DNA from: an uncultured Candidatus Rokubacteria bacterium
GTDB lineage: Bacteria; Methylomirabilota; Methylomirabilia; Rokubacteriales; DASRDR01
Length of the DNA: 64,000 nt
Assembly (NCBI GenBank): GCA_963826115.1
Contig: CAWGVS010000012.1
Location: forward strand, 1-64,000
Direction: 5' to 3'
The notes under the pieces were generated by a model. It was not told the DNA's origin. It saw only the letters and a program-made list of their open reading frames with translations, and searched no databases. This document shows positions 5,543 to 63,871 of the stretch, piece by piece. Position numbers and translations under genes: made by a program. How positions within the stretch are numbered: position 1 is the stretch's first letter; every line of letters starts with the position of its first letter.

Positions 5543-6649
5543 TCAGCCGCCGAAGAGCTTCTTGAGCGACTCCAGGAAGCCGCCGACGAGCGGGCCCTGC
5601 TCCTCGCCGGAGGACACGCGCTGGTACTCCTCGAGGAGCTCCTTCTGCCTGCCGGTCAACTTGCGCGGGACCTCCACCACCACCGAGTAGCAGGCGTCGC
5701 CGCGCCCGCGGCCGTGGAGCGAGGGCATCCCCTTCCCGCGGAGCCGGAGGACGTCCCCGTTCTGGGCGCCGGCCGGCACCTTGAGCTGGGCGACGCCGTC
5801 GAGGATCGGGACGTCCACCTCGGCGCCGAGCGCCGCCTGGGGGAACGTGAGCGGGAGCGCGCAGTAGAGCTCGTTGCCCTGCCGGGTGAAGAAGGCGTGC
5901 TGCTTCACGTGGAGGACGACGTAGAGGTCACCCGGGGGGCCGCCGCCCACGCCGCCCTCGCCCTCCCCGGCGACGCGCATCTGCGCGCCCTCGTCGACGC
6001 CGGGCGGGATGCGCACCTTGAGCGTCCGCTCCTGCTGGACGCGGCCCTCGCCCGAGCAGGTCTTGCAGGGGTTCTTGACGATCTGCCCCTCGCCGCCGCA
6101 CTGGCCGCACGTCCGGGCCACCGTGAGGAAGCCCTGCTGGTAGCGGAGCTGCCCGCGCCCCTTGCAGGTCGGACACTGGGTCCGCCCCGATCCCGGCTCG
6201 GCGCCGCTCCCCTTGCACGTCTCGCAGGTCTCGAGCCGCGGGATCTGGAGCTTCGTCTCGAGCCCCTTGGCCGCCTCCTCGAGCGTGAGCTCGAGGTCGT
6301 ACCGGAGATCGTCGCCGGCCCGTCCACGGCCGCCCCGGCGGCCCCCGCGCCCGCCCCCGAAGAACCCCTCGAAGAGATCGCCGAAGAGGTCCTCGAGCCC
6401 GCCGAGGTCCGGGCCGCCCGGCGGCAGATCCACGCGGCCGTAGCGGTCGTACTGGGCGCGGCGCTGGCCGTCCGACAGGACAGCGTAGGCCTCGTTGATG
6501 ACCTTGAACCGCTCCTCGGCGTGGGCGTCGTCGGGGTTGCGGTCCGGATGGTGCTTCAACGCGAGCTGCCGGAAGGCCTTCTTGATCTCGACGTCGCTCG
6601 CGTCCCGCGAGACGCCGAGGATCTCGTAGTAGTCGCGCTGAGCGGCCAT
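5543..6649 (-). CDS. dnaJ: Chaperone DnaJ
   Basis: J domain with HPD, G/F region, four CxxCxGxG repeats, C-terminal domain; downstream of grpE. Confidence 0.97.
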
Positions 6650-6692
6650 GGCTATCGGGTTCGCGGCGCGCCGGGCGGTCGGCCCCGGCCGG

Positions 6693-7265
6693 TCAGTTCG
6701 CGTCCTCGCCGCCGGCCGGGTGGACGGCGACGACGACCTGCGCGGGGCGCAGCACGCGGTCCTGGAAGAGGTAGCCTCGGAGCGCCTCGGTCACGACCGT
6801 CTGGTCCGCGAGGTCGGCGCGCTCGACCCGCCCCACGGCCTCGTGGCGCGTCGGATCGAAGGGCTGCCCGACGGCGACGAACGGCCGGACCCCGAGGCGC
6901 TCCAGCGCGGCGAGGAAGTCCCGGTGGATCAGCTCCACGCCGGTCCGCAGGCCCGGGTCGGCGCCGCGCGCCGGCGGCGCGGCCAGGGCCCGATCGAAGT
7001 TGTCGATTGTCGGAAGGATCTCCCGGAGCAGCGTCTCCTGCGCCTGGCGCCGCCAGTCGTCGCGATCCCGGTTGGTCCGGCGCCGGAAGTTCTCGAACTC
7101 GGCGAGCGTGCGGAGATAGCGGTCCTGGGCCTCGGCGGCCTCGCGCGCCCGGGCGTCCCGCTCGGCCCGGACCGTTTCGAGGCTCTCTTCCGGCGCGCCG
7201 GCGGCATCCACCGCGTCGGGGTCGCTCCAGGCGTCGTCCGGTCCGCGCCAGCGATCGTTCGCCAT
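6693..7265 (-). CDS. grpE: Nucleotide exchange factor GrpE
   Basis: [41 protein letters not shown]. Confidence 0.97.
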
Positions 7266-7268
7266 GGC

Positions 7269-8321
7269 CTAGCCGAGCGGCGCCGCGCCGCCGAGGCGGG
7301 TGAGGCGCCGGGAGACGAGCCGCGCCGTGTACTCGACCAGCGGCACGATCTTCGCGTAGGGCATCCGCCGCGGCCCCACGATGCCGAGGACGCCCAGCAC
7401 GCGGTCGTGGAACCGGTAGGACGCCGCGACCAGGCTGGTCTCCTGCATCTCCTGGTAGGGCATCTCGGATCCGATCACCACCTGCACCGCGCCCGAGGCC
7501 TGCGCGCGCGTCGTGAGGAGCTCGATCAGCTGGCGCTTCTCCTCGAAGGTCTTGAGGAGAGCCCGCATCGTGCCGATGCCGAACTCGGGCTGGTCCAGCA
7601 TGTTCATCGCCCCGCCGACGTAGAGGTTCCGGTCCCAGAGCGACTGGAAGACCTTGCGCGCCACGTAGGCGGCCGTGCGCAGCACGCGCTCGGGGCCCGG
7701 GGCCACGCCCCCCTCGGCCACCTGGGTCCGGATCTCCTGGAACGTGAGCCCGGCGTAGCGCTCGGTGAGGAGCCGCGCGACCTCGGGCACCTCGCTCCGC
7801 GGCACCGGCTCCTCGAAGGCGAGGATGCGGCTCATCCCCCAGCCCGTCTCCGTCGCCAGCACGACGATCGCCCGGTCGCCCTCGACCGGGATGAGGTCGA
7901 CGCGCTCGAGCCGCGTGTGCTGGAGCGGCGGCGCGAGGATGACCGCCGCGTAGTGCGAGAGCTCCGACAGCTGGGCCGACGTCGCCTCCATGAGGTCGTC
8001 GATCTCGCTCCGGGTCCCCGAGACCTGGCGCTGGAGCCGGTGCGCGTCCGGGCGGCCGATCTCCGTGCGCCCCATCAGGCTGTCGACGTAATACCGGTAG
8101 GCCTTGTCGGTCGGCACCCGCCCGGCCGAGGTATGCGGCTGGGCGAGGTAACCCATCTCCTCGAGGTCTGCCATCGTGTTGCGGATGGTGGCCGGGGACA
8201 GGCCGAGCGCGTGCTTCTTCGCCAGCTGACGGGACCCGACGGGCTCCGCCGTGACGGTGTACTCGAAGAGCAGCGCCTGCAGGACCTGACGGGCGCGCTC
8301 GCTCAGCTCGCTGGTGCTCAT
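7269..8321 (-). CDS. hrcA: Heat-inducible transcription repressor HrcA
   Basis: EPVGSRQL, SPATIRNTMADLEEMGYLAQPHTSAGRVPTDKAYRYYVD, GIVGPRRMPY. Confidence 0.97.
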   Translation of the reverse strand: MSTSELSERARQVLQALLFEYTVTAEPVGSRQLAKKHALGLSPATIRNTMADLEEMGYLAQPHTSAGRVPTDKAYRYYVDSLMGRTEIGRPDAHRLQRQVSGTRSEIDDLMEATSAQLSELSHYAAVILAPPLQHTRLERVDLIPVEGDRAIVVLATETGWGMSRILAFEEPVPRSEVPEVARLLTERYAGLTFQEIRTQVAEGGVAPGPERVLRTAAYVARKVFQSLWDRNLYVGGAMNMLDQPEFGIGTMRALLKTFEEKRQLIELLTTRAQASGAVQVVIGSEMPYQEMQETSLVAASYRFHDRVLGVLGIVGPRRMPYAKIVPLVEYTARLVSRRLTRLGGAAPLG

Positions 8322-8384
8322 GGACTCCCTGTCCGTGTCAATGGACGGACGCCCGCCCCCGTTCCGGGTGGGCTCGCAATGGCA

Positions 8385-8413
8385 AATATCCAGGCAGGAC
8401 GCGGGGTTGTCAA
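8385..8413 (-). promoter_or_regulatory. Sigma70-type promoter of the hrcA operon
   Basis: Minus strand TTGACA-17 nt-GATATT. Confidence 0.6.
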
Positions 8414-8445
8414 GGTTGCGAGCCCGCCCCGTGGATGGGCAGCGA

Positions 8446-8474
8446 TTGACAGGGCCACGGGCCTCCCCTACAAC
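8446..8474 (+). promoter_or_regulatory. Sigma70-type promoter of the LLM oxidoreductase
   Basis: TTGACA-17 nt-TACAAC, followed by GGAGGAG RBS. Confidence 0.6.
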
Positions 8475-8494
8475 GGCGGGCGGGAGGAGCCCCC

Positions 8495-9448
8495 ATGACC
8501 GTCCAGTTCGGGTTCTCGCTCACTGGCCGCGGAGCCCTGGCGGACCGCGAGACGATCACGATGCTCGCGCAGCGCGCCGAGGCGCTCGGCTACGACTCGA
8601 TCTTCGTCACGGACCGGATGCTGATCCCCGTGGCCGCGACGACGGCGTACCCCTACTCCGCCACGGGCGCGTTCCCGCTCGGGCCCGACGAGCCGTGGCT
8701 CGAATGCCTCACCGCGGTGACCTACCTCGCGACGATCACGCGGCGGATCCGCGTGGGCACGAGCGTGCTCGTGATCCCGTACCGGAACCCCGTCGCCACG
8801 GCGCGCGCGCTCGCCACCGCGGACTACCTCTCGGGCGGGCGCGTGATCCTGGGCGCCGGCATCGGCTGGTGGCGCGAGGAGTTCGCGGCCCTCGGCGTCC
8901 CGTTCGAGGAGCGGGCCGCCCGCACCGTCGAGGCGCTCCGCCTCATGCGCGAGATCTGGACGGCGCCGCGCGTCCGGTTCGAGGGCCGCTTCTGGCAGGT
9001 CCGCGAGGCCGGCGGCGTGCGGCCTCACCCCGCCCAGCGGCCCTCGATCCCCATCTGGATCGGCGGCCACGGCGACGCGGCCCTCCGGCGCGTGGTGGAG
9101 GTCGCCGACGGCTGGCATCCCCTCGGGCTGCGCCCCCCGGTCACGCTCCATCCCCCGGAGCTCGGCGCGCGCGTCCGGCGGCTTCACGAGCTGGCCGCCG
9201 CGGCGGGACGCGACCCGAGCAGCATCGTGGTCGCCTTCAAGGGCCCGATCGCGTTCCGGGACGGCGCGGGCCGCGACCGCGCGCCGCTCACCGGATCCCC
9301 GGCCCAGATCGTCGAGGACCTCCAGGCCTACGTGGCGGCGGGCGCGCGACACTTCGTGCTCGACTTCTCGGTGCCGACGCCGCCCGAGATGCTGGACGTC
9401 CTCGCGCGCTTCGCGGGAGACGTGCGCCCGCGCGTCGGCGCGGGCTAG
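8495..9448 (+). CDS. Luciferase-like (LLM class, possibly F420-dependent) oxidoreductase
   Basis: AEALGYDSIFVTD, IRVGTSVLVIPYRNP, LSGGRVILGAGIGW, PIWIGG, ADGW. Confidence 0.9.
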   Translation: MTVQFGFSLTGRGALADRETITMLAQRAEALGYDSIFVTDRMLIPVAATTAYPYSATGAFPLGPDEPWLECLTAVTYLATITRRIRVGTSVLVIPYRNPVATARALATADYLSGGRVILGAGIGWWREEFAALGVPFEERAARTVEALRLMREIWTAPRVRFEGRFWQVREAGGVRPHPAQRPSIPIWIGGHGDAALRRVVEVADGWHPLGLRPPVTLHPPELGARVRRLHELAAAAGRDPSSIVVAFKGPIAFRDGAGRDRAPLTGSPAQIVEDLQAYVAAGARHFVLDFSVPTPPEMLDVLARFAGDVRPRVGAG

Positions 9449-9457
9449 CGTCCTCGC

Positions 9458-10588
9458 CTAGACCAGCTCGGCGAAGATCGCGTCCGAGACCAGGACGCCG
9501 CGGTCGGTGAGCGCGATGCGCCCGTCTCGGGTCGCCATCACGCCCGCGGCCAGGTAGCGCTCGACGGTCGGCGCGCCGGGGCGCAGCTCGACGGCTAAAT
9601 GCCGCTCGAGCCACTCGAGCGGCACGCCCTCCGCGAGGCGAAGCCCGAGGACCAGGCGCTCGGCTCGGATCTGGGCGTCCGACAGCCGCTCCCAGCCCTC
9701 GAGGGTCCAGCTTCCGGCGAGCGCGGCCGCGCGCCAGCGGGGCTCCGAGCGCCGCGTCCAGTAGCGGACCGGGCCGACGGCGCCGTGCGCCCCCGGGCCG
9801 AGACCCACGTAGTCCTCACGCCGCCAGTAGCCGAGGTTGTGGCGCGAGCGCCGGCCCGGCCGCGCGAAGTTCGAGATCTCGTAGCGCGGAAGCCCCGCGC
9901 GCGCCGCGCGCTCGACCAGCGTCTCGAACTGGGCGACCTGGACGTCCTCGTCGGGCAGCCCGGCGGGCGCGCGCCGCCCGAAGGGCGTCGCCGGCTCGAG
10001 CGTGAGCGCGTAGGCGGAGAGGTGGTCCGGCTCCCAGGCGAGGACGGCCTCGAGCGTCCGGATCCACGCGGCCAGATCCTGGTCGGGACACGCGTACAGG
10101 AGGTCGACGCTCACGTCGTCGAACCCCGCCGCGCGCGCCGCGCGGTAGGCCGCCCCCGCGTCGGCCGCGGAGTGCGTGCGCCCGAGCCGCCGCAGGAGCG
10201 CGTCGTCCAGCGCCTGGACGCCGAGCGAGAGCCGCGTCACCCCGGCCGCCCGGAACGCGCGGAGGCGATCCCGGTCGAGCCCCTCGGGATTGGCTTCGAG
10301 GGTGACCTCCGCGTCCGGCGCGAGCCCGAGCCCGTCGCGGGCGTCGGCCAGGACGGCGGCGACCGCCTCGGGCGGGAGGAGCGACGGCGTGCCCCCGCCG
10401 AAGAAGAGGCTCCCCGCCGGCAGACGGCCGGCCCAGGGCAGCGCGGCGTAGCGCGCGAGCTCGGCGCGGAGGCCGGCGATGTAGGGCGCGATCCGGTCCT
10501 CGCGGTGGATGGCGACGTTGAAGTCGCAGTAGGGACACTTCGTCCGGCAGTACGGGCAGTGAACGTAGATGCCGAACCGCGCGCCCAC
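9458..10588 (-). CDS. hemW: Radical SAM heme chaperone HemW
   Basis: YVHCPYCRTKCPYCDF, GGGTPS, EANP, YEISNFA, HNLGYW; follows lepA-lepB; start approximate. Confidence 0.9.
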   Translation of the reverse strand: MGARFGIYVHCPYCRTKCPYCDFNVAIHREDRIAPYIAGLRAELARYAALPWAGRLPAGSLFFGGGTPSLLPPEAVAAVLADARDGLGLAPDAEVTLEANPEGLDRDRLRAFRAAGVTRLSLGVQALDDALLRRLGRTHSAADAGAAYRAARAAGFDDVSVDLLYACPDQDLAAWIRTLEAVLAWEPDHLSAYALTLEPATPFGRRAPAGLPDEDVQVAQFETLVERAARAGLPRYEISNFARPGRRSRHNLGYWRREDYVGLGPGAHGAVGPVRYWTRRSEPRWRAAALAGSWTLEGWERLSDAQIRAERLVLGLRLAEGVPLEWLERHLAVELRPGAPTVERYLAAGVMATRDGRIALTDRGVLVSDAIFAELV

Positions 10589-10638
10589 CGGGCCCGCCCG
10601 GAGCTCGGCGTCCGGGACGGGGCCGGGCCCGGCCGGGG

Positions 10639-11280
10639 CTAGTAGATCAGCTTGCCCAGCCGGCTCCACCTGACGCGCTCCTGGACGGCGTCCTTGTCCG
10701 AGTCCCAGGACCAGTAGATGAGGAACGCCCGGCCCTTGATCTTCTCGCGCTTGACGAAGCCCCAGTAGCGGCTGTCCTGGCTGTTGTTCCGGTTGTCGCC
10801 CATCACGAAGTAGGAGTTCGACGGCACCTTCACCGACGTGCTCTCGCTGATGCCGAACCGGTCCTCCCACTTGCCCCACGGGTCCTCGATCGGCCGGCAG
10901 CTCGCGTCGGGCGGCTTGCAGTTGATGTAGATCTTCTGGTCCTTGATGAAGAGGTCTTCTCCCCCGACCGCGATGATCCGCTTGATGAAGTCGCGCGACT
11001 CGTCGACTGGGTACTTGAAGACGACGACGTCGCCCCGCTTCGGGTCCACGAAGCGGTAGACGAACTTGTTCACCAGGATGTGGTCCCCGACCAGGAGGGT
11101 CGGGATCATCGAGCCGGACGGGATCTTGAAGGCCTGGACGACGAAGGTGCGGATGAGCAGCGCGAGCAGGATCGCGACGAGGATCGCCTCGGTGTACTCG
11201 CGGACGACGGACTTCTTCCGGACCTTGACGCTCTCCTGCGGGACATCCTCCGGCGACGTGTGGTTGAAGGGTTGCGTCAT
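10639..11280 (-). CDS. lepB: Signal peptidase I
   Basis: IPSGSMIPTL, FIKRII, GDNRNNSQDSRYWG. Confidence 0.96.
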   Translation of the reverse strand: MTQPFNHTSPEDVPQESVKVRKKSVVREYTEAILVAILLALLIRTFVVQAFKIPSGSMIPTLLVGDHILVNKFVYRFVDPKRGDVVVFKYPVDESRDFIKRIIAVGGEDLFIKDQKIYINCKPPDASCRPIEDPWGKWEDRFGISESTSVKVPSNSYFVMGDNRNNSQDSRYWGFVKREKIKGRAFLIYWSWDSDKDAVQERVRWSRLGKLIY

Positions 11281-20942: not shown

Positions 20943-22322
20943 TCAGACGATGGGCCAGCGGGACCGCGGCAGATCCACGCCGGTCCGCGCGAGCAGGCGC
21001 TCGCCGATTTCCTGGACGCGCGCGAAGAGCCGCGCCTCGTCCACGAAGGACTGGCGGTGGGCGTCGACGACGACGCGGCCGTCCACGATCACGGTGTGGA
21101 CGCTCCCGCCGTCGGCGTTGTAGACGAGGTTGTTGATCGGGTTCCACAGCGCCTGCCACTCCGGCCGCGCGGTGTCGAAGAGGACGAGGTCGGCGCGCTT
21201 GCCGGGCTCGAGCGAGCCGATCTCGTCCCCGAGCCCGAGCGCCCGCGCCCCGAGGCGCGTCCCCATCTCCAGCGCCCGCTCGGCGGGGATCTGGCGCGTG
21301 TCCTGGCGGGCGTCCTTGTACTGGAGGGCCGCCATGTTCATCGTCCGCACCATGTCGAGGTGGTTCGAGTTGTTCGGAGAGTCGGAGCCGAGCGCCACCC
21401 GGACGCCGGCGTCGAGCAGCTCCGGCATCCGGCCGTGCTGCGCCGTCCCGCCGCCGCGCTTGGCGTTCATCACCGGACAGATCGCCACGGCCGTGCCGGT
21501 GCGGACCAGGCACGCGATCTCGTCCCCGTCCAGGCCGGGCGCGTGCGACAGGAGGACCCTCGGCCCGAGGACGCCGAGCGATTCGAGGTACTGGGTGGGG
21601 CCGAGCCCGTGCCGGGCCAGGGACTCCCGTCGCGGCTCGGGGCCGCTCAGGTGATGCAGCGTGAGCCCGGTGCCGTGCTCGTCGGCCGCGCGCTTCACGC
21701 CTCGCAGCAGAGGCGCGCTGCACGACTCCGGCGAGAACGGCATCGCCCAGGCCCGGATCCGCCCCTCGAGCCGCCCGTCCCACTTTCGGAGAAAGGCCGC
21801 GGTGCGCGCGATCCCCTCCTCCGTCGGGTAGCGCGGCAGCGGGAACGGCGCGTCCAGATCCGACACGCCCTCGCCGAGGATCACGCGGATGCCGGCATCC
21901 GCGTAGGCCTGGAGACACGCGTCCGGGAACTTGGTGCTGCCCGGGTCGACGAAGGCGACGGTGCCCCCCCGCAGCAGCTCGACGAGACCGAGGAGCGTCG
22001 TGTGGTACTCCTCGTCCTCCGTCATCGCCATCTGGAGCCGGAACACGTAGGGCAGCGGGCTCCCCAGGTCGTCCAGGAAGATGCCGCGTACGGGGTGGGC
22101 GTAGCTCACGTGCATGTGGCCGTTGACGAAGCCCGGCGTCACGAGGAACTGACGGGCGTCGATCGTGCGGTCGGCGGGGACGTCCCGGAGCTCGGCCGCC
22201 TTGCCGACCCGGCGGATCCGCGAGCCCTCGATCAGGATGGAGCCGTCCTGGATGATCCGCCGCGTGTCGTCCAGGGTGACCACGTAGCGGGCGTGCTCGA
22301 TCTTGAGCGTCGGGGTTGGCAC
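20943..22322 (-). CDS. Amidohydrolase superfamily protein (MtaD/AtzA-like subgroup)
   Basis: PGFVNGHMH, SHA, ALGSD, IGSLEPGKRADLV. Confidence 0.88.
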   Translation of the reverse strand: MPTPTLKIEHARYVVTLDDTRRIIQDGSILIEGSRIRRVGKAAELRDVPADRTIDARQFLVTPGFVNGHMHVSYAHPVRGIFLDDLGSPLPYVFRLQMAMTEDEEYHTTLLGLVELLRGGTVAFVDPGSTKFPDACLQAYADAGIRVILGEGVSDLDAPFPLPRYPTEEGIARTAAFLRKWDGRLEGRIRAWAMPFSPESCSAPLLRGVKRAADEHGTGLTLHHLSGPEPRRESLARHGLGPTQYLESLGVLGPRVLLSHAPGLDGDEIACLVRTGTAVAICPVMNAKRGGGTAQHGRMPELLDAGVRVALGSDSPNNSNHLDMVRTMNMAALQYKDARQDTRQIPAERALEMGTRLGARALGLGDEIGSLEPGKRADLVLFDTARPEWQALWNPINNLVYNADGGSVHTVIVDGRVVVDAHRQSFVDEARLFARVQEIGERLLARTGVDLPRSRWPIV

Positions 22323-22490
22323 GAGTCGGCGGCTCCCTCCGGCGAGCTACGGCGAGGATGGCATCCGCGCTGCGGCGGCGCAAGCTGCCCGGGCCGTCCG
22401 GGCGCGCTCCCGGCGGGCCGGCGCGTTCGTCGCGGCCGATGGCCCGGGTACTATATACTGGCGGCGCCGATTTCAGGCCGCGGAGGATCG

Positions 22491-23690
22491 ATGGACTTCA
22501 GGTTGACTCCCGAGCAGGAGACATTTCGCGCCGAGGTGCGCGCCTGGCTCTCGGCCAACCTGCCGCCGGACTGGTCCGCACGGGCCGTCGTCACCGAGGT
22601 GCCGCGCGCGGAGCTCTACGATTTCGGCCGCCACTGGCAGCGGAAGCTCCACGAGGCCGGGCTCCTCGGGCTCACCTGGCCGAAGGAGTACGGGGGCCGC
22701 GGGCTCACGTGGATGGAGGAACTCCTGCTCCACGAGGAGCTGATCCAGCACCGGGCGCCGCCGCCCCTCAACGTCCTCGGACTCGGCATGGCCGGCCCGA
22801 CCATCATCGCGTACGGCACCGACGCCCAGAAGCAGCGCTACCTCCAGAAGATCCTGACGTGCGAGGAGATCTGGTGCCAGGGCTACTCCGAGCCCAACGC
22901 GGGCTCCGACCTGGCGTCGCTCCAGACCCGGGCCGTGCGGGACGGCGACCACTACGTCGTCAACGGCCAGAAGGTCTGGACGAGCCTCGCGCAGATCTCG
23001 GACTGGATGATGCTGCTCGCCCGCACCGACCCGAGCGCGCCGAAGCACAAGGGCCTCACGTACTTCCTCCTCGACATGCACTCCCCCGGCATCACCGTGC
23101 GGCCGCTCCGCCAGATCACCGGCGACGCCGAGTTCAACGAGGTGTTCTTCGAGAACGTGCGGGTGCCCGCGGAGAACATCCTCGGCGTCGAGGGCCAGGG
23201 CTGGCAGGTCGGGATCACGACGCTCATGTACGAGCGCCTCGCGCTCGGGTTCGGGCTCCAGGCCCGATTCGAGATCGCCACCGGCGCGACGCTCGACCTG
23301 GCCCGCCGGATGTCGCGCGAGGGCGAGCCCGCCGCGAAGAGCCCGGTCATGCGCCAGCGACTGGCGCAGCTGGTCATCGACAACGCGGTGTTCAAGTACA
23401 CCGCCAAGCGGGCCATCACCAAGCTCCTCCGGGGCGAGATGCCCGGCTCCGAGGCCTCGGCCGGCAAGATCTGGTGGTGCGACCGCCACCAGGCCCTCCA
23501 GGATCTCGCCCAGGACCTCCTGGGCTCGTACGGGCAGCTCGCGAAGGGCTCGCCCTGGGCCGTCGACCGTGGCAGCTGGCACTACACGTTCCTCCGGTCG
23601 CGCGCCAACTCGATCGAGGGCGGCACGACGGAGATCCAGCGCAACATCCTGGCCGAGCGCGTCCTCGGTCTGCCGAAGGACTCGGCCTGA
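22491..23690 (+). CDS. Acyl-CoA dehydrogenase (catalytic subunit type)
   Basis: WCQGYSEPNAGSDLASL, NGQKVWTS, FNEVFF, IEGGTTEIQRNI; GGAGG RBS. Confidence 0.93.
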   Translation: MDFRLTPEQETFRAEVRAWLSANLPPDWSARAVVTEVPRAELYDFGRHWQRKLHEAGLLGLTWPKEYGGRGLTWMEELLLHEELIQHRAPPPLNVLGLGMAGPTIIAYGTDAQKQRYLQKILTCEEIWCQGYSEPNAGSDLASLQTRAVRDGDHYVVNGQKVWTSLAQISDWMMLLARTDPSAPKHKGLTYFLLDMHSPGITVRPLRQITGDAEFNEVFFENVRVPAENILGVEGQGWQVGITTLMYERLALGFGLQARFEIATGATLDLARRMSREGEPAAKSPVMRQRLAQLVIDNAVFKYTAKRAITKLLRGEMPGSEASAGKIWWCDRHQALQDLAQDLLGSYGQLAKGSPWAVDRGSWHYTFLRSRANSIEGGTTEIQRNILAERVLGLPKDSA

Positions 23691-24838
23691 TGGACTTCGG
23701 CTTCAGCCAGGAACAGGACCTCCTCCGCCAGACGGCGCGGACCTTCCTCGAGAAGGAGTGCCCGTCCGGGTTCGTCCGCCGGATGATGGACGACGAGACC
23801 GGCACGACCGACGAGTTCTGGGCGAAGCTCGCGGAGCTCGGGTGGCTCGGCCTGGTCACGCCCGAGGCGGACGGCGGGATGGGCCTCGGGCTCGTCGACC
23901 TCACCGTCGTGCTGGAAGAGATGGGGCGGGCCGTGATGCCGGGGCCGTTCTTCTCGACGGTGCTCCTCGGCGGCCTCGCGATCCGGGATGCGGGCTCGGA
24001 GGCGCAGCGGACGGCGTGGCTTCCCCGGATCGCCACGGGAGAGGCCCGGGTGACCTTCGCCCTCCTCGAGGAAAGCGCCCGGTGGGATGCCGCCGGCGTG
24101 GAGCTCTCCGCGAAGCCCGGCAAGAACGGGGGCTTCGTCCTGTCGGGCACGAAGCTCTTCGTCCTCGATGGGCACTCGGCGGACCTCCTGATCGTGGCCG
24201 CCCGGACCGCCCGCGCGACGAAGGACGATCCGAGCCACGGCGTCAGCCTCTTCCTGGTCCCGACAGACCGGAAGGGCGTCCGGACCACGCTCCTCCCGAC
24301 GATGGACCAGACGCGGAAGCTCGCCGAGGTCGCGCTCTCGCGAGTCGAGGTCGGCGCCGACGCGCTCCTGGGCCCCGTCCACCAGGGCTGGCCGATCGCG
24401 GCCCGGGTGCTGGACCGCGCGGCCGTCGCGCTCTGCGCCGAGATGTGCGGCGGGGCCCAGCGGGTGCTGGATCTCTCGACCGACTACGCCAAGATGCGCG
24501 TCGCCTTCGGAAAGCCGATCGGCACCTACCAGGCCGTGAAGCACCGGTGCGCCGACATGCTGGTGGCGATCGAGAACGCGAAGTCCATCACCTACTACGC
24601 CGCGTGGGCCGCCGACCAGGACGCGCCCGACGCCGCGCTGGCCGCCTCGATGGCCAAGGCCTTCGTGTCCGACGCGTACCGGAAGGTCGCCGGCGACGGG
24701 ATCCAGGTCCACGGCGGGATCGGCTTCACCTGGGAGCACGATCTGCACCTTTACTTCAAGCGCGCCAAGGGCTCCGAGGTCGCGTTCGGGGACGCGACGC
24801 TCCACCGGGAGCGCGTGGCGCGCCTCCTGGAGCTCTAG
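23690..24838 (+). CDS. Acyl-CoA dehydrogenase (partner subunit, probable alpha2beta2 pair)
   Basis: TGATG coupling with the upstream gene; EEMGRAVMPGP, FGKPIGTYQAVKH, IQVHGGIGFTWEHDLHLYFKRA. Confidence 0.92.
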   Translation: MDFGFSQEQDLLRQTARTFLEKECPSGFVRRMMDDETGTTDEFWAKLAELGWLGLVTPEADGGMGLGLVDLTVVLEEMGRAVMPGPFFSTVLLGGLAIRDAGSEAQRTAWLPRIATGEARVTFALLEESARWDAAGVELSAKPGKNGGFVLSGTKLFVLDGHSADLLIVAARTARATKDDPSHGVSLFLVPTDRKGVRTTLLPTMDQTRKLAEVALSRVEVGADALLGPVHQGWPIAARVLDRAAVALCAEMCGGAQRVLDLSTDYAKMRVAFGKPIGTYQAVKHRCADMLVAIENAKSITYYAAWAADQDAPDAALAASMAKAFVSDAYRKVAGDGIQVHGGIGFTWEHDLHLYFKRAKGSEVAFGDATLHRERVARLLEL

Positions 24839-24848
24839 TCCGGGCCGG

Positions 24849-25844
24849 GTGATGGCGGCGCCACCCGACAAGCTCAAGCTCAAGCGCCAGGTCCTCCGGG
24901 GGGCCGTCCGGGAGAACGTCGAGACGATCCGCGGGCTCCCGCCGGCGCCGCTCCGCGCCGGCACGCGTCTCCGCCGGGGCGCGATCCAGGCGACGCTTCT
25001 CGTGGCCCTCCCCGCCCTCGGACTCCTCGCCTACAACCCCCTCTCGGGTAGCGCGCCGGACCGCGCAGCCGTGCTCGCCACGGCCCCGGCGGTCCTGACC
25101 TTCCGAGCGCCGAAGGCGATCGGGCCCGTCACCGCCTCCCTGACGGTCAAGAAGCTCGTCCTGGACCCCGGGCACGGCGGCAACGACTCCGGCGCCCGCG
25201 CCCAGGGGGTGTGGGAGAAGGAGATCACGCTCCACATCGCGCGCGAGCTGCGCGGCCTCCTCAAGCGGGCGAACTACGACGTCGCGATGACCCGGGACGC
25301 CGACAGCTTCGTCTCGCTCCGCCAGCGGGCGCAGATGGCCAACCTAGAGCACGCCGACCTCTTCGTGTCGATCCACGTCAACTCGGTCCCGTCGCGGGAG
25401 TGCCACGCGGTCGAGACCTATTACCTCGGGCCGGCCGACGACCCGCGGGCCGAGCAGCTCGCCGGCAAGGAGAACCACGAGTCGGGCTATCATCTGGCGG
25501 ACTTCCGCCGGCTCCTCGAGGGCGTGTACGTCCACGTCCGGCAGGCGGAGTCGCGGAAGCTGGCCCAGGTCGTCCAGCAGGAGCTGGTCTCGGCCCTGGG
25601 CGACACGAATCCCGCGATCCGGGACAAGGGGGTGCGCAGCGCGCCGTTCCTGGTCCTCGTGGCCAGCGAGAGCCCCGGCATCCTCGCCGAGGTCTCGTGC
25701 CTGTCGAACGACGAGGAGGCGGGGCGGCTCGCCGACCCGTCCTATCGCCAGCGCATCGCGCGCGCGCTCTTCCACGGCATCCACGCGTACGCGGAGGCTC
25801 GCAACCGCGTCGCCAAGCTGGGCCAGGCCCCAGGGAGCCCGTAG
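24849..25844 (+). CDS. N-acetylmuramoyl-L-alanine amidase (Amidase_3) with N-terminal membrane anchor
   Basis: LVLDPGHGG, EKEITL, LFVSIHVNS and ILAEVSCLSN carry the Zn ligands and catalytic Glu; hydrophobic AIQATLLVALPALGLLAY follows a basic N-terminus; no AMIN domain recognised. Confidence 0.92.
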   Translation: MMAAPPDKLKLKRQVLRGAVRENVETIRGLPPAPLRAGTRLRRGAIQATLLVALPALGLLAYNPLSGSAPDRAAVLATAPAVLTFRAPKAIGPVTASLTVKKLVLDPGHGGNDSGARAQGVWEKEITLHIARELRGLLKRANYDVAMTRDADSFVSLRQRAQMANLEHADLFVSIHVNSVPSRECHAVETYYLGPADDPRAEQLAGKENHESGYHLADFRRLLEGVYVHVRQAESRKLAQVVQQELVSALGDTNPAIRDKGVRSAPFLVLVASESPGILAEVSCLSNDEEAGRLADPSYRQRIARALFHGIHAYAEARNRVAKLGQAPGSP

Positions 25845-26864
25845 ATGACCAAGAAGACCGATGTCCTCCACGTCGGCATCGATCTCGGCACCTCCCGCAG
25901 CTCGATCTCCGCGTCGAACGGCGGCCGGCACGTCGTGGAGAGCTACGTCGGCTGGCCGGTCGACATGGTGGCCCGGCGCCTCGTGAAGAAGCCCATCCTG
26001 TTCGGCCGGGAGGCGCTCGACAGCCGGCCGATGCTCGACCTCCGCCGTCCGCTCGAGCGGGGCCTCATCAAGGAGGGGTCGGAACGGGACGAGCTGGCGG
26101 TGCGGGAGCTCCTGCGGCACCTCATCTCGCTCGCGGGCGGGCGCGAGGGTCAGCCGATCCGCGCGGTGGTGGGCGTGCCCGCCGAGGCGCTGCGCGTGAG
26201 CCGGCAGAACCTCCGGAGTGCCGTCAAGGGTGTCGCCGACGGGCTCATGATCGTGTCCGAGCCCTTCGCCGTGTCCTACGGGATGGACGCCCTCCTCCAC
26301 ACGATGATCGTCGACATCGGCGCCGGGACGACCGACTTCTGCGTCATGCGCGGGCGCTACCCGACCGAGGAGGACCAGCGGACGCTCACGAACGCGGGCG
26401 ACTCCATCGACGAGCAGCTGATGACCCTCGTCCGGGCGAAGCACCCCGACGCCCAGTTCTCCATCTACATGGTCCGCGAGTGGAAGGAGAAGTGGAGCTT
26501 CGTCGGCGAACCGCCGGCCCCGGTGGTCGTCACCGTCATGAAGGCCGCCAAGGCGACGCCGATCGACGTCACCAGCGAGATGCGACGGGCGTGCGAGAGC
26601 GTGGTGGCGCCGATCACGGAGACGATGGCCGACCTCCTGGCGCGGGTCGAGCCCGAGTACCAGGAGCGCGTCCGCCACAACATCATCCTGGCGGGGGGGG
26701 GCTCCCAGATCCCCGGGCTCGCCGGGGCGATGGAGAAGGCCCTCGGCGACTACGGCGGCGGCGCCGTGCGCGTGGTGGAGGACCCGGTCTTCGCCGGCTC
26801 GAACGGGAGCCTCGCGATCGCGCTCGACGCCTCCGAGGGCGACTGGGAGTCCCTCGCCGGCTAG
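25845..26864 (+). CDS. MamK-like bacterial actin
   Basis: Actin motifs GIDLGTS, VSEPF, IVDIGAGTTD and ILAGGGS, plus MamK-type segments VGWPVD, PLERG, PTEEDQRTLTNAG, KEKWSFVG, EPEYQ, VEDPVFAG and a C-terminal WxxL. Confidence 0.88.
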   Translation: MTKKTDVLHVGIDLGTSRSSISASNGGRHVVESYVGWPVDMVARRLVKKPILFGREALDSRPMLDLRRPLERGLIKEGSERDELAVRELLRHLISLAGGREGQPIRAVVGVPAEALRVSRQNLRSAVKGVADGLMIVSEPFAVSYGMDALLHTMIVDIGAGTTDFCVMRGRYPTEEDQRTLTNAGDSIDEQLMTLVRAKHPDAQFSIYMVREWKEKWSFVGEPPAPVVVTVMKAAKATPIDVTSEMRRACESVVAPITETMADLLARVEPEYQERVRHNIILAGGGSQIPGLAGAMEKALGDYGGGAVRVVEDPVFAGSNGSLAIALDASEGDWESLAG

Positions 26865-26904: not shown

Positions 26905-27702
26905 GTGCCCGTCGAGCCCCGGCCCGCGGCCTCCGTCCTCCTGATCCGGCCCGGCCAGGCGGCGCCCATCGAGGTCTTCCTGATCCGCCGGGCGCGCGAC
27001 ATGCGCTTCCTCGGCGGCTACTACGCCTTCCCCGGCGGCAAGGTCGACCTCGCGGACCGGAGTCACGAGGCCCTCGTCCGGACCCACGGTCTGTCCCCCG
27101 AGGCCGCGGCCCGCGCGATCGGCGACCCGGGCGACGAGGTCCCCGCCCTCGCGTACTGGCTCGCCGGCGTCCGCGAGGTCTTCGAGGAGACCGGCGTGCT
27201 GCTGGCCCGCGACGCCGACGGCCGGCCCGTCGCCGCCGGCGAGCCGCACGTCGCACATCGACTCGAGGGCCACCGGCGGGCGCTCGTCCGCGGGGATCGG
27301 TCGTTCACCGCGGTCCTGGCGGCGGAGGACTGGACGGCCGACGTCGGGCCGCTCCGCTACCTCTCCCACTTCGTGACGCCGCCGGCGAGCCCGATCCGCT
27401 TCTCCGCCCGCTTCTTCCTGTGCCCCGTGCCGGCCGGCCAGGGGCCGCGGCTGATCGCCGAGGAAGCCTCCGAGGGCTTCTGGGTCGATCCGGCCGAGGC
27501 GCACCGGCGCTTCCGGGCCCACGAGTGGCCGATGGCGGAACCGGCGGAGTACGGCACCCAGTACCTCGCCCAGTTCGAGTCGTGCGAGGCGGTGTGGCGC
27601 CACCACGCCGACGGCCGGCCGAAGTTCGACGGCATCATCGACCGCCTCGACGCCGCGCGGTACTACCTCTTCGACTGGTCGACAGTGGTGCGGCCCGCGT
27701 GA
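26905..27702 (+). CDS. NUDIX hydrolase (NUDT19-like)
   Basis: PRPAASVLL, FPGGKVD, GVREVFEETG, FVTP...RFSARFF. Confidence 0.88.
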   Translation: MPVEPRPAASVLLIRPGQAAPIEVFLIRRARDMRFLGGYYAFPGGKVDLADRSHEALVRTHGLSPEAAARAIGDPGDEVPALAYWLAGVREVFEETGVLLARDADGRPVAAGEPHVAHRLEGHRRALVRGDRSFTAVLAAEDWTADVGPLRYLSHFVTPPASPIRFSARFFLCPVPAGQGPRLIAEEASEGFWVDPAEAHRRFRAHEWPMAEPAEYGTQYLAQFESCEAVWRHHADGRPKFDGIIDRLDAARYYLFDWSTVVRPA

Positions 27703-28547
27703 GCGCGCCGCGGCCGCCGGGTATTCCCGAGACGGCGCGGCTCACGCCGCTGGTGGGGCGCGTCCTCGGGCTGAACCCCGGGCTCATGACGGGGCCCGGC
27801 ACCAACACGTACCTGGTCGGCGCGCGCCGGCCCATCCTGCTCGACACCGGCGCCGGGGTCCGCGGGTACATCCGGCTCCTGACCGCGTTCCTCGGCGCGG
27901 AGGGCGAGACCGAGGTGTCGCGGGTGATCCTGACGCACCGGCACGTCGACCACATCGGCGGCGTGCCCGACGTCCGGCGCGCCTTCCCGCGCGTGCCCGT
28001 CGCCAAGCTCGTGAAGAACGACGCGACGCTGCCGGTTCCCATGGAGTCGCTCGGCGACGGCGCGGTGATCCGGGGCGACGGCGTCACCCTCCACGCGATC
28101 TACACGCCCGGCCACGCGTCCGATCACCTCTGCTACTACCTCGAGGAGGAACGGGCGCTCTTCACCGGCGACCTGATCCTGGGCGGCTCGACGACGGTGA
28201 TCCCGCCCGACGACGGCGACCTCGCGGACTACCTCGCGTCCCTCCGGCGGGTGCTCGAGCTCGACGTCCAGCGCATCTACCCGGCCCACGGGCCGGTCCT
28301 CGAGCCGGCGCGGCCGGTGATCGAGGGCTACATCGCCCACCGCCTCGAGCGCGACCGGCAGATCCTCGCCGCCGTCGGGGACGGCGCCGAGACCGTCGCC
28401 GACATCGTGGCCCGCGTCTACCGCGAGGTCGCGCCCGCGCTCCATCCGGTGGCGCGCCTGTCCGTGCTCTCGCACCTCCAGAAGCTCGAGCGCGAGGAAC
28501 GCGTCCGCCGCCTCGCCGGCGACCCGCCGCGCTTCCGCCTCGCCTGA
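27699..28547 (+). CDS. Metallo-beta-lactamase fold hydrolase (LACTB2-like, with winged-helix tail)
   Basis: NPGLMTGPGTNTY, THRHVDHIGG, TPGHASDH, FTGD, YPAHG; GTGA overlap. Confidence 0.9.
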   Translation: MSAPRPPGIPETARLTPLVGRVLGLNPGLMTGPGTNTYLVGARRPILLDTGAGVRGYIRLLTAFLGAEGETEVSRVILTHRHVDHIGGVPDVRRAFPRVPVAKLVKNDATLPVPMESLGDGAVIRGDGVTLHAIYTPGHASDHLCYYLEEERALFTGDLILGGSTTVIPPDDGDLADYLASLRRVLELDVQRIYPAHGPVLEPARPVIEGYIAHRLERDRQILAAVGDGAETVADIVARVYREVAPALHPVARLSVLSHLQKLEREERVRRLAGDPPRFRLA

Positions 28548-60059: not shown

Positions 60060-62663
60060 TCAGACCGCGGCGGTCTCGACGACCCGCGTGAAGCTGAGCT
60101 CGTCCCCGCGCGCGTCGACCCGCACTGTGTCACCCGGCTGGATCTCGCCCTCCAGGAGCTTGAGCGCGAGCGGGTCCTGCACCCGCCGCTGAAGTGTGCG
60201 CTTGAGCGGACGCGCCCCGAAGACCGGGTCGAAGCCTTCCTTCGCGAGGAGCGCCTTCGCGCCGTCCGTCAGCTCGAGGCCGATCCGCTTGTCCGCGAGC
60301 CGCTTCCGGAGGTGCGCCGACTGGATGTCCACGACCCGCTTGATCTCGTCGAGCCCGAGCGCGTGGAAGACGATCACCTCGTCGATGCGGTTCAGGAACT
60401 CCGGCCGGAGATGCTGGCGGAGCTCCTCCAGCACGAGGGCGCGCACCTTGTCCGGGTCGGCGACCTCCCGGAAGTGGTGGCTGCCGAGGTTCGAGGTCAT
60501 GATCACGACCGTGTTGCGGAAGTCCACCGTGCGGCCGTGGCCGTCGGTCAGCCGGCCGTCGTCGAGGAGCTGGAGGAGCGCGTTCCAGACGTCGGGATGC
60601 GCCTTCTCGACCTCGTCGAAGAGCACCACGGAGTAGGGGCGCCGGCGCACCGCCTCGGTCAGCTGCCCGCCCTCCTCGAAGCCGACGTAGCCGGGCGGGG
60701 CGCCGAGAAGCCGCGCCACCGTGTGCTTCTCCATGTACTCGGACATGTCGATCCGCACCATCGCGCGCTCGTCGTCGAACAGGAACTCCGCCAGCGCCCG
60801 GGCGAGCTCGGTCTTGCCGACCCCCGTCGGGCCCAGGAAGAGGAACGAGCCGATGGGGCGGTTGGGGTCGGAGAGCCCCGAGCGCGCCCGCCGGACGGCG
60901 TTCGAGACCGCGCGGATCGCCTCGGGCTGGCCGACCACCCGCTGGCCGAGGCGCTCCTCCATCTGGACGAGCTTCTGGACCTCGCCCTCGAGGAGCCGCG
61001 TCACCGGGATGCCGGTCCACTTGCCCACGACCTCGGCGACGTCCTCCTCGTCGACCTCCTCCTTGAGGAGGCGGCTCTGCCCCTGCTGCGCGGCGAGGCG
61101 CGCGTTCTCGGCCTCGAGCCGCTGCTGGAGCTGGTGGAGGGTCCCGAAGCGGAGCTCGGCCGCCCGCGCGAGGTCGCCGCGTCGCTCGGCGTCGGCCATG
61201 GCCGTCCGCGCGGCGTCGATCTCCTCCGTGATCTTGCTGAGGCGCCCGATGGCCTCCTTCTCGCCCTGCCAGCGGGCCTTGAACGCCGCGGCGCGCTCCT
61301 TCAGGTCCGCGAGCTCGCGGTCCAGGCGCTCGAGGCGCTCCTTCGACGGCTCGTCGGTCTCCTTGGCCAGCGACACCCGCTCGATCTCGAGCTGCATGAT
61401 GCGGCGCTGGATCTCGTCGAGCTCGGCCGGCACGGAGTCGATCTCGATGCGGAGCCGCGACGCGGCCTCGTCCACGAGGTCGATGGCCTTGTCGGGCAGG
61501 AACCGGTCGGCGATGTACCGGTGGGAGAGGACCGCCGCCGCCACCAGCGCCGAGTCCTTGATCCGGACCTTGTGGTGGACCTCGTACTTGTCCTTGAGGC
61601 CGCGGAGGATCGCGATGGTGTCCTCGACGGAGGGCTCCTTCACGAAGATCGGCTGGAAACGCCGCTCGAGGGCCGCGTCCTTCTCGATGTGCTTCCGGTA
61701 CTCGTCGAGCGTCGTCGCGCCGACGCAGCGGAGCTCGCCGCGCGCGAGCGCCGGCTTCAGCATGTTCGAGGCGTCCATCGCGCCCTCGGCGCCGCCGGCG
61801 CCGACCAGCGTGTGGAGCTCGTCGATGAAGCAGACGACCTCGCCGCCCGCCTCGGTGATCTCGCGCAGCACGGCCTTCAGACGATCCTCGAACTCGCCGC
61901 GGTACTTGGTCCCGGCGATGAGGGCGCCGAGGTCGAGGGCGACCAGGCGCTTGCCCTTGAGCCCCTCAGGCACGTCCCCCGCGATGATGCGCTGGGCCAG
62001 GCCCTCGACGATCGCGGTCTTGCCGACGCCCGGCTCGCCGATGAGCACGGGGTTGTTCTTCGTCCGGCGCGAGAGCACCTGGACGACCCGGCGGATCTCG
62101 TCGTCGCGGCCGATGACGGGGTCGAGCTTGCCCTTCCGCGCCAGCTCCGTCAGGTCCCGGCTGTAGCGCTCGAGGGCCTGGTACTTCGCTTCGGGGTTCT
62201 GGTCGGTCACGCGCTGGGAGCCACGGACATCCACCAGCGCCCGGTAGAGGGCGTCCTTGGTCACGCCAGCCTGTCGGAGGATGCGGCCTGCTGCGCCGTC
62301 GGCCTCCTGGGCGATCGCGACGAGGAGGTGCTCCGCCGAGCAGTAGTCGTCCTTGAGCCGCTCCATCTCGGCCCAGGCGGCGTCGAAGACGGCCTTGAGC
62401 CGCGGGCCCATGTACTGGCCGCTCGCGCCGCTGACCTTGGGAAGCCGGCGGATCTCCGCCTGGATCTCCCGGCGGATCGCCTCCGGCCGGGCGCCGAGCT
62501 TGGAGAGGAGCGCGCCGACGACGCCCTCCTCCTGCTCGACCAGGGCGAGCAAGAGATGCTCGGGCTCGATCTGCTGGTGGCCCTCGCGATCCGCGAGACC
62601 CTGAGCGGACTGGACCGCCTCCTGGGCCTTCACGGTGAGCTTGTCGAACCGGAACGGCGCCAT
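60060..62663 (-). CDS. clpB: ATP-dependent chaperone ClpB
   Basis: Clp N-domain, GEPGVGKT, middle coiled coil (RAAELRFG), [16 protein letters not shown]; AGGAGG RBS. Confidence 0.97.
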
Positions 62664-62730
62664 GCGCTCGTGACCCTCCTTGGTCCTTCGTAGACGACCC
62701 CGCGCCACTCGTCGCGCGGGATCACTGAGG

Positions 62731-62758
62731 AGTCTAGCAGCCGGTCGGACGGTGTCAA
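62731..62758 (-). promoter_or_regulatory. Sigma70-type promoter of clpB
   Basis: Minus strand TTGACA-16 nt-TAGACT with a TGn extension. Confidence 0.55.
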
Positions 62759-62782
62759 AAGACGCCGTCCGTCGGCGGACGG
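62757..62782 (-). terminator. Hairpin after the cbpA-like gene
   Basis: CCGTCCG-TCGG-CGGACGG stem, followed on the minus strand by CGTCTTTT. Confidence 0.4.
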
Positions 62783-62818
62783 TCTCGCGCCGGCTCGCGG
62801 CGCGCGGGGCGGGCGGAG

Positions 62819-63871
62819 CTAGGCCGGGTCGCGGGGCAGCGCGGGACGGAGGCCGCGGAGCTCCTCGAAGAGCTCTCGCTCCCGCGCCGAGAGGCCGGTG
62901 GGCATCACGATTCGGACCCGCACCAGCTGATCCCCCTTCCCGCCCTTGAGGTGCGGGACCCCGTAGCCGGGCAGGCGGAACGTGCGCCCGCTGCTGGTCT
63001 CGGGCGGGATCTTCATCGAAACCTTGCCGCGGAGCGTGGGCACCTCCACCTCGGCGCCGAGGGCCGCTTCCCACGGGGCGATCGGGAGCTCCAGGTGGAC
63101 GTCGTCCTCGCGACGCTCGAACAGCGGGTGCGACTGGATGTGGACCCGGAGGTAGAGATCACCGCGACCCCCGCCGGCGGTGCCGGAGCCGCCCTCACCG
63201 GCCGCGCGAACGCGGGAACCGTCCCGGACGCCGGCAGGGATGCTCACCTCCACGCGGTTCGTCCGGGGAACGCGGCCAGAGCCGCCGCACGTGGGACACG
63301 GTGACTTGCCCTGCCGCCCCGAGCCCCCGCAGGTCCCGCACGGCGCGAGCTCCTGGAACTCGACGGCCCGGCGGGTCCCGGCAAACGCCTCCTCCAGCGA
63401 GATCTCGACCTCGGTCTCGAGGTCGCCGCCCCGGCGCGCCCGCGCCCCGGCCCGGAACCGGCCCTGATCCTCGAACTCGACGCCCTGGAACGGGCCCTGG
63501 CGCGCGCCGAGGTCGCCGAAGATGGTGCGGAAGAACTCGGAGAAGTCCCCGAGGTTGCCCGACGGGTCCACGTGGACGCGGTAGCCGCCCGGCCCCGGGC
63601 CCCCCGCCTGCCCCCCGTGTCCGGCGCCGGCGTCCGCGTAGCGCGCCCAGTCCGGCCCGAGGGTGTCGTAGCGCTGGCGCTTCTCGGGGTCGGACAGGAC
63701 CTCGTTCGCCTCGTTGATCTCCTTGAAGCGCTCGGCGGCGGCCTTGTTGTCCGGGTTCTGGTCGGGGTGGTACTTGCGGGCGAGCTTCCGGTAGGCGGAC
63801 TTGATCGCCTTCGCGTCCGCGGACTTCGGGACGCCGAGGATCTGGTAGTAGTCCTTGTAGGTGACCGCCAC
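62819..63871 (-). CDS. J-domain protein, CbpA/DnaJ2-like
   Basis: YKDYY, YHPD, FSEFF, only two CxxCxGxG repeats, PWEAALG. Confidence 0.92.

Follow-up and report, generated by a model that had tools for sequence, protein, structure and literature searches.

A MamK-superfamily actin gene paired with the gene of a putative bitopic amidase in a Rokubacteria genome devoid of a magnetosome cluster, and a predicted contact between the two products

In the 64,000-nucleotide (nt) stretch of Rokubacteria DNA analyzed here in its whole length (hereafter, the window), an open reading frame (ORF) encoding an actin-like ATPase of the MamK superfamily was found directly behind an ORF encoding an N-acetylmuramoyl-L-alanine amidase with a predicted membrane anchor (Table 1). 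The source genome, a metagenome-assembled genome (MAG) of a soil bacterium of the Rokubacteria/Methylomirabilota, consists of 12 contigs totaling 6.24 Mb, with a completeness of 99.09%. A Shine–Dalgarno-like GGGAG, as read from the sequence, is located inside the 3′ end of the amidase gene, 8–9 nt before the actin start codon. The neighborhood of the actin gene was compared in the best 80 related loci (actin identity 66–98%), which belonged to Rokubacteria/Methylomirabilota, Acidobacteriota (mostly labelled Thermoanaerobaculia) and Binatia. An amidase gene was present directly upstream and on the same strand in 76 of them, the four misses being contig edges with less than 400 nt upstream, and for 72 of these pairs the automatically picked distance from the amidase stop to the actin start lay between −4 and +28 nt. 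No further neighbor was shared between the phyla in these 80 loci. The actin thus appears to be translationally coupled to the amidase. It should be noted that the first-pass annotation of this DNA had correctly recognized a relative of MamK at the locus but had overlooked the conserved, coupled upstream amidase, which is the real clue to function.

Table 1. Coordinates of the amidase–actin gene pair and of the genes downstream of it in the window
Feature	Position	Strand	Description
MamK-superfamily actin-like ATPase	25845..26864	+	339 aa, ATG start; member of the amidase-linked clade
Bitopic N-acetylmuramoyl-L-alanine amidase (predicted)	24849..25844	+	331 aa from GTG 24849; 330 aa from ATG 24852
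Amidase cytoplasmic tail, aa 1–44 (predicted)	24852..24983	+	Conserved amphipathic helix, predicted actin-docking peptide
Gene junction	25832..25847	+	Amidase stop TAG 25842–25844, then actin ATG 25845, no gap
NUDIX-like gene	26905..27702		Downstream of actin; not in Acidobacteriota or Binatia loci
Metallo-beta-lactamase-fold gene with BLACT_WH domain	~27720..28547		Downstream of actin; not in Acidobacteriota or Binatia loci

The actin ORF has a third-codon-position G+C content (GC3) of 0.97 in DNA of 72% G+C, as for a real gene. Its product matched the NCBIfam MamK model (NF040964) with 367.1 bits over profile positions 1–330 of 335, not reaching the cut-off of 400, and scored below the cut-offs of the BeeR model (NF053558; 214.2 bits, cut-off 530) and of the MreB models (65.5 bits, cut-off 293, and 52.1 bits, cut-off 366); the best Pfam match was MreB_Mbl (71.5 bits). 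The closest solved structures were those of Magnetospirillum MamK, namely, 5LJW, 5JYG and 5LJV (E of about 1e-76, actin residues 8–337), and the HMMER alignment with 5LJW was colinear over the same residues (E = 3.3e-76). Further matches in the PDB were BeeR 8R2N (E = 8e-43) and MreB structures (E = 4e-13 or weaker). The identity to MamK proteins encoded in magnetosome clusters was 33–40%. The phosphate-1, connect-1, phosphate-2 and adenosine motifs were all intact, which places the protein in the superfamily. Residues D13, G15, T16, E139, D157, G159, G161, T162, G284 and G285 were invariant in the 22 actins with an upstream amidase and common to magnetosome-cluster MamK; according to the 5LJW alignment, E139 and D157 correspond to E143 and D161 of MamK. 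In an alignment of 30 sequences from three phyla, the mean column identity of the actin was 80%. The first ATP motif begins at residue 11, and seven residues precede the first profile match position; an N terminus of this length does not suffice to form an amphipathic membrane helix. Two motifs of MreB, GTANT and NEPS, were absent from the actin and present in the genome's own canonical MreB, a separate gene on the same contig (G000:C12:309182–310132, where G000 is the source genome). Judging from these features, the gene product is an ATP-binding actin of the MamK superfamily, and it is probably filament-forming. The coordinates and length reported in the first-pass annotation were exact. The MamK-specific segments that it had listed, i.e., VGWPVD (VGYPKD in MamK), VSEPF, PTEEDQRTLTNAG (PGPEDQVTLTKAG), KEKWSFVG (KEQFSFVG), EPEYQ (QPEYQ) and the terminal W..L, were all present in the 5LJW alignment, and its statement that MreB hallmarks are lacking agrees with the missing motifs and with the 52–65 bits obtained for the MreB models.

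The upstream gene product contained a single Pfam domain, Amidase_3 (157.5 bits, cut-off 27), with no AMIN or other wall-targeting domain among its Pfam matches. In the AlphaFold2 (AF2) model (mean predicted local distance difference test, pLDDT, 77.5), an N-terminal helix (residues 5–26) is followed by a transmembrane (TM) helix (about 32–60), a disordered linker (62–91) and the catalytic domain (about 100–325). The consensus of the N-terminal helix in the alignment of 30 sequences from three phyla was RLKxxxLRxAVRENVD, with N22 invariant. Residues H108, E122, H175 and E280 were likewise invariant in the 30 amidases, and, by their spacing, we take them to be the zinc ligands and the catalytic glutamate of Amidase_3; the mean column identity of the amidase was 53%. 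The best fold matches were E. coli AmiA (8C2O), Bartonella AmiB (3NE8) and E. coli AmiC (4BIN). The full-length alignment to 3NE8 and 8C2O took in an insert at residues 193–236, which the alignment to the short AmiC2 (5EMI) passed over, and the matches to 4RN7 and CwlV (1JWQ) ended at residues 196–200. In amidases of the AmiA/B/C type, this insert houses the autoinhibitory helix; since a stretch that aligns with the insert is present here, the amidase probably also needs a periplasmic activator. The genome encodes a second Amidase_3 protein (G000:C12:697203–697847, a 585-aa ORF with a weak AMIN match; locus L099), which is probably the conventional septal amidase, and four other carrier genomes likewise have at least two Amidase_3 genes. 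Consequently, the actin-linked amidase is an extra paralogue, and the amidase–actin module is an extra system beside MreB and the AMIN-bearing second amidase.

Phylogenetic analysis of the actin was performed using a library of representative proteins at 50% identity, in which 185 representatives were found at E ≤ 1e-30. Their scores with the MamK model formed a continuum from about 210 to 508 bits, and therefore the cut-off of 400 marks no natural boundary. Two groups were labelled by gene context, namely, 22 actins with an upstream amidase (that of the window plus 16 from genome loci and 5 from metagenome loci) and nine MamKs situated amid mam genes (L101–L105, L117, L119, L126 and L130). 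The main tree comprised 120 rows and was built by an IQ-TREE quick search under LG+G4, with support from the Shimodaira–Hasegawa-like approximate likelihood ratio test (SH-aLRT) and with the genome's own MreB as the single outgroup for the root. All 22 amidase-context actins, together with the representative P0123, formed one clade of 23 rows (SH-aLRT 99). Of the nine magnetosome-cluster MamKs, eight were grouped into a different clade of 29 rows (support 99), with L126 beside it; this clade also included an AMB-1 MamK-like protein and an FtsZ–MamK fusion from a magnetotactic fosmid. The BeeR-like representatives fell outside the 111-row MamK superfamily (support 99), with which a tree of 86 rows was concordant, and MreB was a distant outgroup in both trees. 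Thus, on the present alignments, the amidase-linked actins appear as a distinct clade apart from the magnetosome-cluster MamKs. As to naming, 'rod shape-determining protein MreB' was the commonest database name in this actin family, whereas P0123, from a Nitrospira sp. MAG, bears the name 'MamK family actin-like protein [Nitrospira sp.]' and exceeds the MamK cut-off with 425 bits, although its position in the tree is inside the amidase-linked clade.

Magnetosome genes were searched for in the whole genome using NCBI curated models, each with its own cut-off. The MamI model gave zero matches in the genome (cut-off 80), and the best scores there were 35 for MamP (cut-off 300), 100 for MamQ (250), 122 for MamB (350), 113 for MamM (350) and 88.5 for MamA (200). 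Depending on the model, between 6 and 13 of the 14 control genomes from non-magnetotactic bacteria also yielded generic matches of this kind (PDZ, LemA, cation diffusion facilitator and tetratricopeptide repeat). In the mamAB operons of metagenome loci L103 and L102, which served as the positive control, the scores were 641 for MamH, 94.5 for MamI, 594–823 for MamE, 493–527 for MamK, 435 for MamM, 736 for MamO, 301–324 for MamP, 203 for MamA and 448–455 for MamB, with MamQ at 230, under its 250. The genome was also searched by tblastn with 17 proteins of real mamAB operons. Eight of these queries were unmatched in the whole genome (MamH, MamI, MamR, MamS, MamT, the Mms6-like protein and the products encoded at the MamJ and MamL positions), the MamK query matched only the studied actin (37% identity), and the others yielded just generic-domain matches scattered on contigs C3, C4, C5, C6, C9, C11 and C12. 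In the window, neither Pfam analysis of 48 ORFs, called by a GC3 heuristic by which small genes may have been missed, nor tblastn with the 17 Mam proteins revealed a mam-like gene besides the actin; the gene content comprised hrcA-grpE-dnaJ, lepA, sugar-nucleotide enzymes, acyl-CoA dehydrogenases, ABC and tripartite ATP-independent periplasmic (TRAP) transporters and clpB. The genome has no magnetosome cluster, and the actin is most probably unrelated to magnetosomes.

These results bear on several claims of the first-pass annotation, which had described a MamK-clade actin outside any magnetosome island. No magnetosome genes had been recognized in the 64 kb, with which both window searches agree, and none of mamA, B, I, M, P and Q was found at its family cut-off in the 99%-complete genome when core mam genes were sought by HMM, as had been proposed. 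The protein does not branch within MreB in the tree. The reading as a non-magnetotactic relative of MamK therefore stands, there being neither a magnetosome cluster nor a branching with MreB; the label 'MamK-clade' holds for the superfamily but was too strong, as the clade is separate from the magnetosome-cluster MamKs. The warning that mamK may produce false positives as a marker of magnetotaxis is real, as illustrated by P0123, which exceeds the cut-off from within the amidase-linked clade. Both this risk and the existence of non-magnetotactic MamK relatives are already known in print: 10.1101/682252, citing Lefevre 2013, mentions some non-magnetotactic genomes with MamK homologues and advises caution with mamK as a marker.

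To assess the contact between the two products, a complex of the actin and amidase residues 1–44, each with its own alignment, was modeled in three runs along with three controls. The interaction prediction score from aligned errors (ipSAE) was 0.83, 0.83 and 0.82 for the tail–actin pair, compared with 0.02 for the best control. Among solved complexes, 116 of 157 come up to the score mark, as do 2 of 215 mismatched pairs, although these counts are rough here, own alignments having been supplied. At least 87% of the contacts were common to the runs, and the pLDDT of the partner was at least 63. The predicted interface included residues 7, 10–23, 25–26 and 28 of the tail and residues 120–124, 134–151, 168–172 and 325–339 of the actin, the latter corresponding, by homology, to the C-terminal helix and the cleft that separates subdomain IA from IIA. 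The amidase cytoplasmic helix is thus predicted to dock in the hydrophobic IA/IIA cleft, against the C-terminal helix. No published report of an actin paired with an amidase was found in full-text searches; in PMC12270681, the sole mention of an amidase was that of a sporulation amidase near a clostridial ParM. As far as the searches reach, neither the constant association of an actin with a bitopic amidase of the AmiA/B/C type nor the contact predicted between tail and cleft has appeared in print before.

The distribution of the gene was evaluated with a profile of the amidase-linked clade (E ≤ 1e-60). It was detected in 18 of the 201 genomes sampled from the phylum of the window, including 14 of the 15 genomes of its own family, in addition to G000, and one of the 126 of the neighboring family. 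In the class of the acidobacterial locus L017, 76 of 121 genomes carried the gene (75 of 120 without the unpublished genome G307), and in the class of the Binatia locus L068, four of 121. Near-identical loci (88–98% protein identity) were present in MAGs labelled Candidatus Rokubacteria or Methylomirabilota, and the actin identity between phyla was 66–78%. In the 86-row tree, the Rokubacteria sequences were grouped with those of Acidobacteriota within a clade of 11 rows (support 99), suggesting that the two genes have spread horizontally as a module, for which Acidobacteriota would be a likely home. No relative was found in plasmid and phage collections at E ≤ 1e-20. Contigs of four soil or rhizosphere RNA libraries covered both genes with 88–99% likeness, and three of them bridged the gene junction (X16 record 14, X17 record 22 and X19 record 28); since RNA libraries can contain DNA, this is weak evidence that both genes are co-transcribed in the relatives. 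The depth of the RNA contigs was not taken as a measure of expression, and its peaks at 24700–24776 and 26240–26393 are probably conserved stretches of other organisms.

On the whole, we consider it probable that the actin is a cytoskeletal one, coupled to a membrane-anchored amidase of the AmiA/B/C type that docks on it by its tail, and that it positions or regulates this amidase. The N-terminal cytoplasmic helix of the amidase would dock on the actin cleft, and the cytoplasmic filament would position, cluster or move the amidase in the membrane and perhaps gate it. The choice of where the wall is to lose its peptide stems, such as when the septum splits, would then be made inside the cell, with the amidase tail in the role that MamJ has for MamK or ParR for ParM. 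A broader version is put forward only tentatively: the filament might directly hold and steer the periplasmic amidase via its TM tail, as a new inside-out route of wall cutting that replaces AMIN-type targeting, the module might have spread between soil phyla, and the magnetosome MamK might be one specialized offshoot of a broad, non-magnetosome family of MamK type.

Several points weigh against such a role. The complex score is a confidence of the model and not a measurement, and because helix-in-cleft complexes of other actins, such as ParM–ParR, have been solved, part of the ipSAE may reflect likeness to them. The IA/IIA cleft is where the subunits of actin-type polymers make their longitudinal contacts, and ParR occupies this site solely at the ends of ParM filaments; therefore, the tail might bind only filament ends or monomers rather than the side of a filament. 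The interface is no better conserved than the rest of the actin (9 of its 23 residues were at least 90% conserved, compared with 37% of the other 316), which lends support neither way, and four of the 23 residues are clade-specific relative to magnetosome-cluster MamK. The patchy distribution suggests that the system is dispensable for most relatives, and the RNA contigs stem from relatives and not from this organism, in addition to the possible presence of DNA in the libraries. Finally, the tree is a quick-search tree with one MreB outgroup and weak deep nodes (84–91), and hence the claim is limited to the monophyly of the amidase-linked clade and its lack of interleaving with magnetosome MamK.

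An explanation that uses the same contact differently is that the amidase tail is a regulator of the polymer and not its cargo, capping, nucleating or sequestering it as ParR does at ParM ends, so that growth would push or separate the amidases, or that the amidase anchors a filament whose job lies elsewhere (polarity, shape or segregation). The predicted site, i.e., the inter-subdomain cleft with the C-terminal helix (134–151, 168–172 and 325–339), is compatible with it, the cleft residues F141, Y145, L150 and G170 are common to magnetosome-cluster MamK, and the higher mean column identity of the actin than of the amidase (80% vs. 53%) would be expected of a polymer with further partners. Nevertheless, the presumed zinc ligands and catalytic glutamate are invariant, so the amidase is kept as an enzyme and not as a mere anchor, and no other conserved partner gene was found across the phyla; we regard this explanation as unlikely. 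It is considerably less plausible that the actin is a second rod-shape protein of the MreB type whose adjacency to the amidase reflects shared wall regulation with no contact. The prevalent database name and the top Pfam match, MreB_Mbl at 71.5 bits, speak for it, whereas the MreB models yielded 52–65 bits against cut-offs of 293–366 (367 for MamK), a canonical MreB is encoded elsewhere on the contig, MreB is the distant outgroup of the tree, the N terminus is too short for the amphipathic membrane helix, and the predicted tail–actin interface passes its controls. A DNA-segregation actin of the ParM/Alp type on an integrated mobile element could account for the patchy occurrence within phyla and the 66–78% identity between them, both of which suggest horizontal spread. 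This is very improbable, as the plasmid and phage collections lacked relatives at the threshold applied, the neighbors are housekeeping genes, no ParR-like, integrase or replication gene was present among the window neighbors, and ParM-type families were not among the NCBIfam matches, where only PRTRC_D appeared with 23.7 bits. That the actin has remained from a magnetosome cluster since lost, or belongs to a cryptic cluster, as its 367 bits near the cut-off of 400 and the silent or horizontally acquired magnetosome clusters of non-magnetotactic bacteria described in PMC9938234 might suggest, is hardly credible given a 99%-complete genome with no match at the level of mamA/B/I/M/P/Q, a clade separate from the magnetosome-cluster MamKs and strong conservation with a different fixed partner (76 of 80 loci; 76 of 121 genomes of one acidobacterial class).

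The proposed amidase-positioning actin can be compared with several known systems. Magnetospirillum MamK (5LJW, 5JYG and 5LJV) is the closest in family and structure and has the same ATP-binding motifs; in contrast to it, the present actin occurs without a magnetosome cluster, scores under the NCBI cut-off, belongs to a separate clade with 33–40% identity, and its proposed cargo is a peptidoglycan hydrolase of the cell membrane and not an organelle. The MamK adaptors MamJ and the MamJ-like Mg-1g50 of magnetotactic bacteria are, as stated in PMC10653835, encoded immediately upstream of mamK, which is the position held here by the amidase with its predicted docking tail; however, the partner here would be a short, basic amphipathic helix, whereas partners of the MamJ type are acidic repetitive proteins. 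BeeR of Verrucomicrobiota (8R2N), a MamK relative with 25–30% identity to MamK and a cellular function unknown according to PMC11929497, is described there as a three-stranded tubular actin with a disordered N-terminal extension of 30–50 aa. Both proteins are thus MamK relatives in non-magnetotactic bacteria, but the actin studied here is without that extension, and BeeR lies outside the MamK superfamily clade in the tree. The amidase is of the same catalytic-domain type as AmiA, AmiB and AmiC, with a stretch that aligns with their insert, and the control of these enzymes through AMIN, EnvC–FtsEX and NlpD embodies the common idea of a cytoplasmic machine that controls a periplasmic amidase. 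Those amidases are soluble in the periplasm and targeted by AMIN domains or activators; the present one is predicted to be bitopic, without AMIN, and in direct contact with a cytoplasmic actin. With ParM–ParR, in which a helix is held in the cleft, and with MreB–RodZ, the system would have in common an adaptor helix in the inter-subdomain cleft and an adaptor gene beside the actin gene; it differs in the actin family and in having no DNA cargo and no RodZ-like helix-turn-helix domain.

Upstream of the pair in the window are two acyl-CoA dehydrogenase genes (22316..24838), the second of which stops 10 nt before the amidase start at 24849; given this spacing, the pair may be co-transcribed with metabolic genes in this lineage. 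The downstream NUDIX and metallo-beta-lactamase-fold genes are not counted as parts of the module, being kept only in 11 Rokubacteria/Methylomirabilota loci. The heat-shock genes of the window, hrcA-grpE-dnaJ on the minus strand (5546..8321) and clpB with a second dnaJ-like gene (60063..63871), are ordinary.

Other MamK-type proteins were found in different arrangements. Amidase_3 was detected in none of the 19 long proteins with a C-terminal MamK-like domain, i.e., no actin–amidase fusion was found among them; one was an FtsZ fusion, the N-terminal part had no Pfam match in 17 of the other 18, and P0133 had a partial actin at the N terminus. The FtsZ fusion, P0191 (768 aa), combines FtsZ (Tubulin and FtsZ_C; TIGR00065, 351 bits) with a C-terminal MamK domain (446 bits), is thus a tubulin–actin fusion from a magnetotactic fosmid, and is named 'Magnetosome protein MamK (MreB-actin-like) [uncultured bacterium]'. 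A clade of 14 rows (P0134, P0136, P0137, P0141–P0144, P0147, P0148, P0151, P0155, P0157, P0159 and P0166; support 100) contained proteins of 523–1232 aa with a C-terminal MamK-like domain and 190–900 N-terminal residues without a Pfam match. A MamK-like clade from marine metagenomes (L174:7494–10984 and the related L166–L177) had no mam or amidase neighbor; the L174 actin gene follows one for a subtilase, and in its vicinity is a gene encoding ribosomal protein L18Ae, a protein of archaea and eukaryotes; therefore, the carriers of this clade may be archaea. On the 87-kb metagenome contig L110, two MamK-like actin genes (8358–9389 and 10001–11014) lie about 600 nt apart; the second falls inside the clade that includes magnetosome-cluster MamKs, whereas tblastn with queries of the alphaproteobacterial type detected no mam genes up to 10 kb away.

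Bacterial actins organize wall synthesis (MreB), division (FtsA), plasmids (ParM) and magnetosomes (MamK), and we know of no bacterial actin that holds a wall hydrolase directly. The pairing, together with the predicted docking, suggests a hitherto undescribed mechanism by which wall cleavage could be directed from the cytoplasm. If true, this would provide a compact two-gene system in which to study the cytoplasmic control of dangerous autolysins. The members of the amidase-linked clade are mostly named 'MreB' and at least one is named 'MamK family', so that mamK by itself cannot safely indicate magnetotaxis in metagenomes of soil. The tree also bears on the origin of MamK, as the magnetosome MamK is one clade in it among many non-magnetosome clades.

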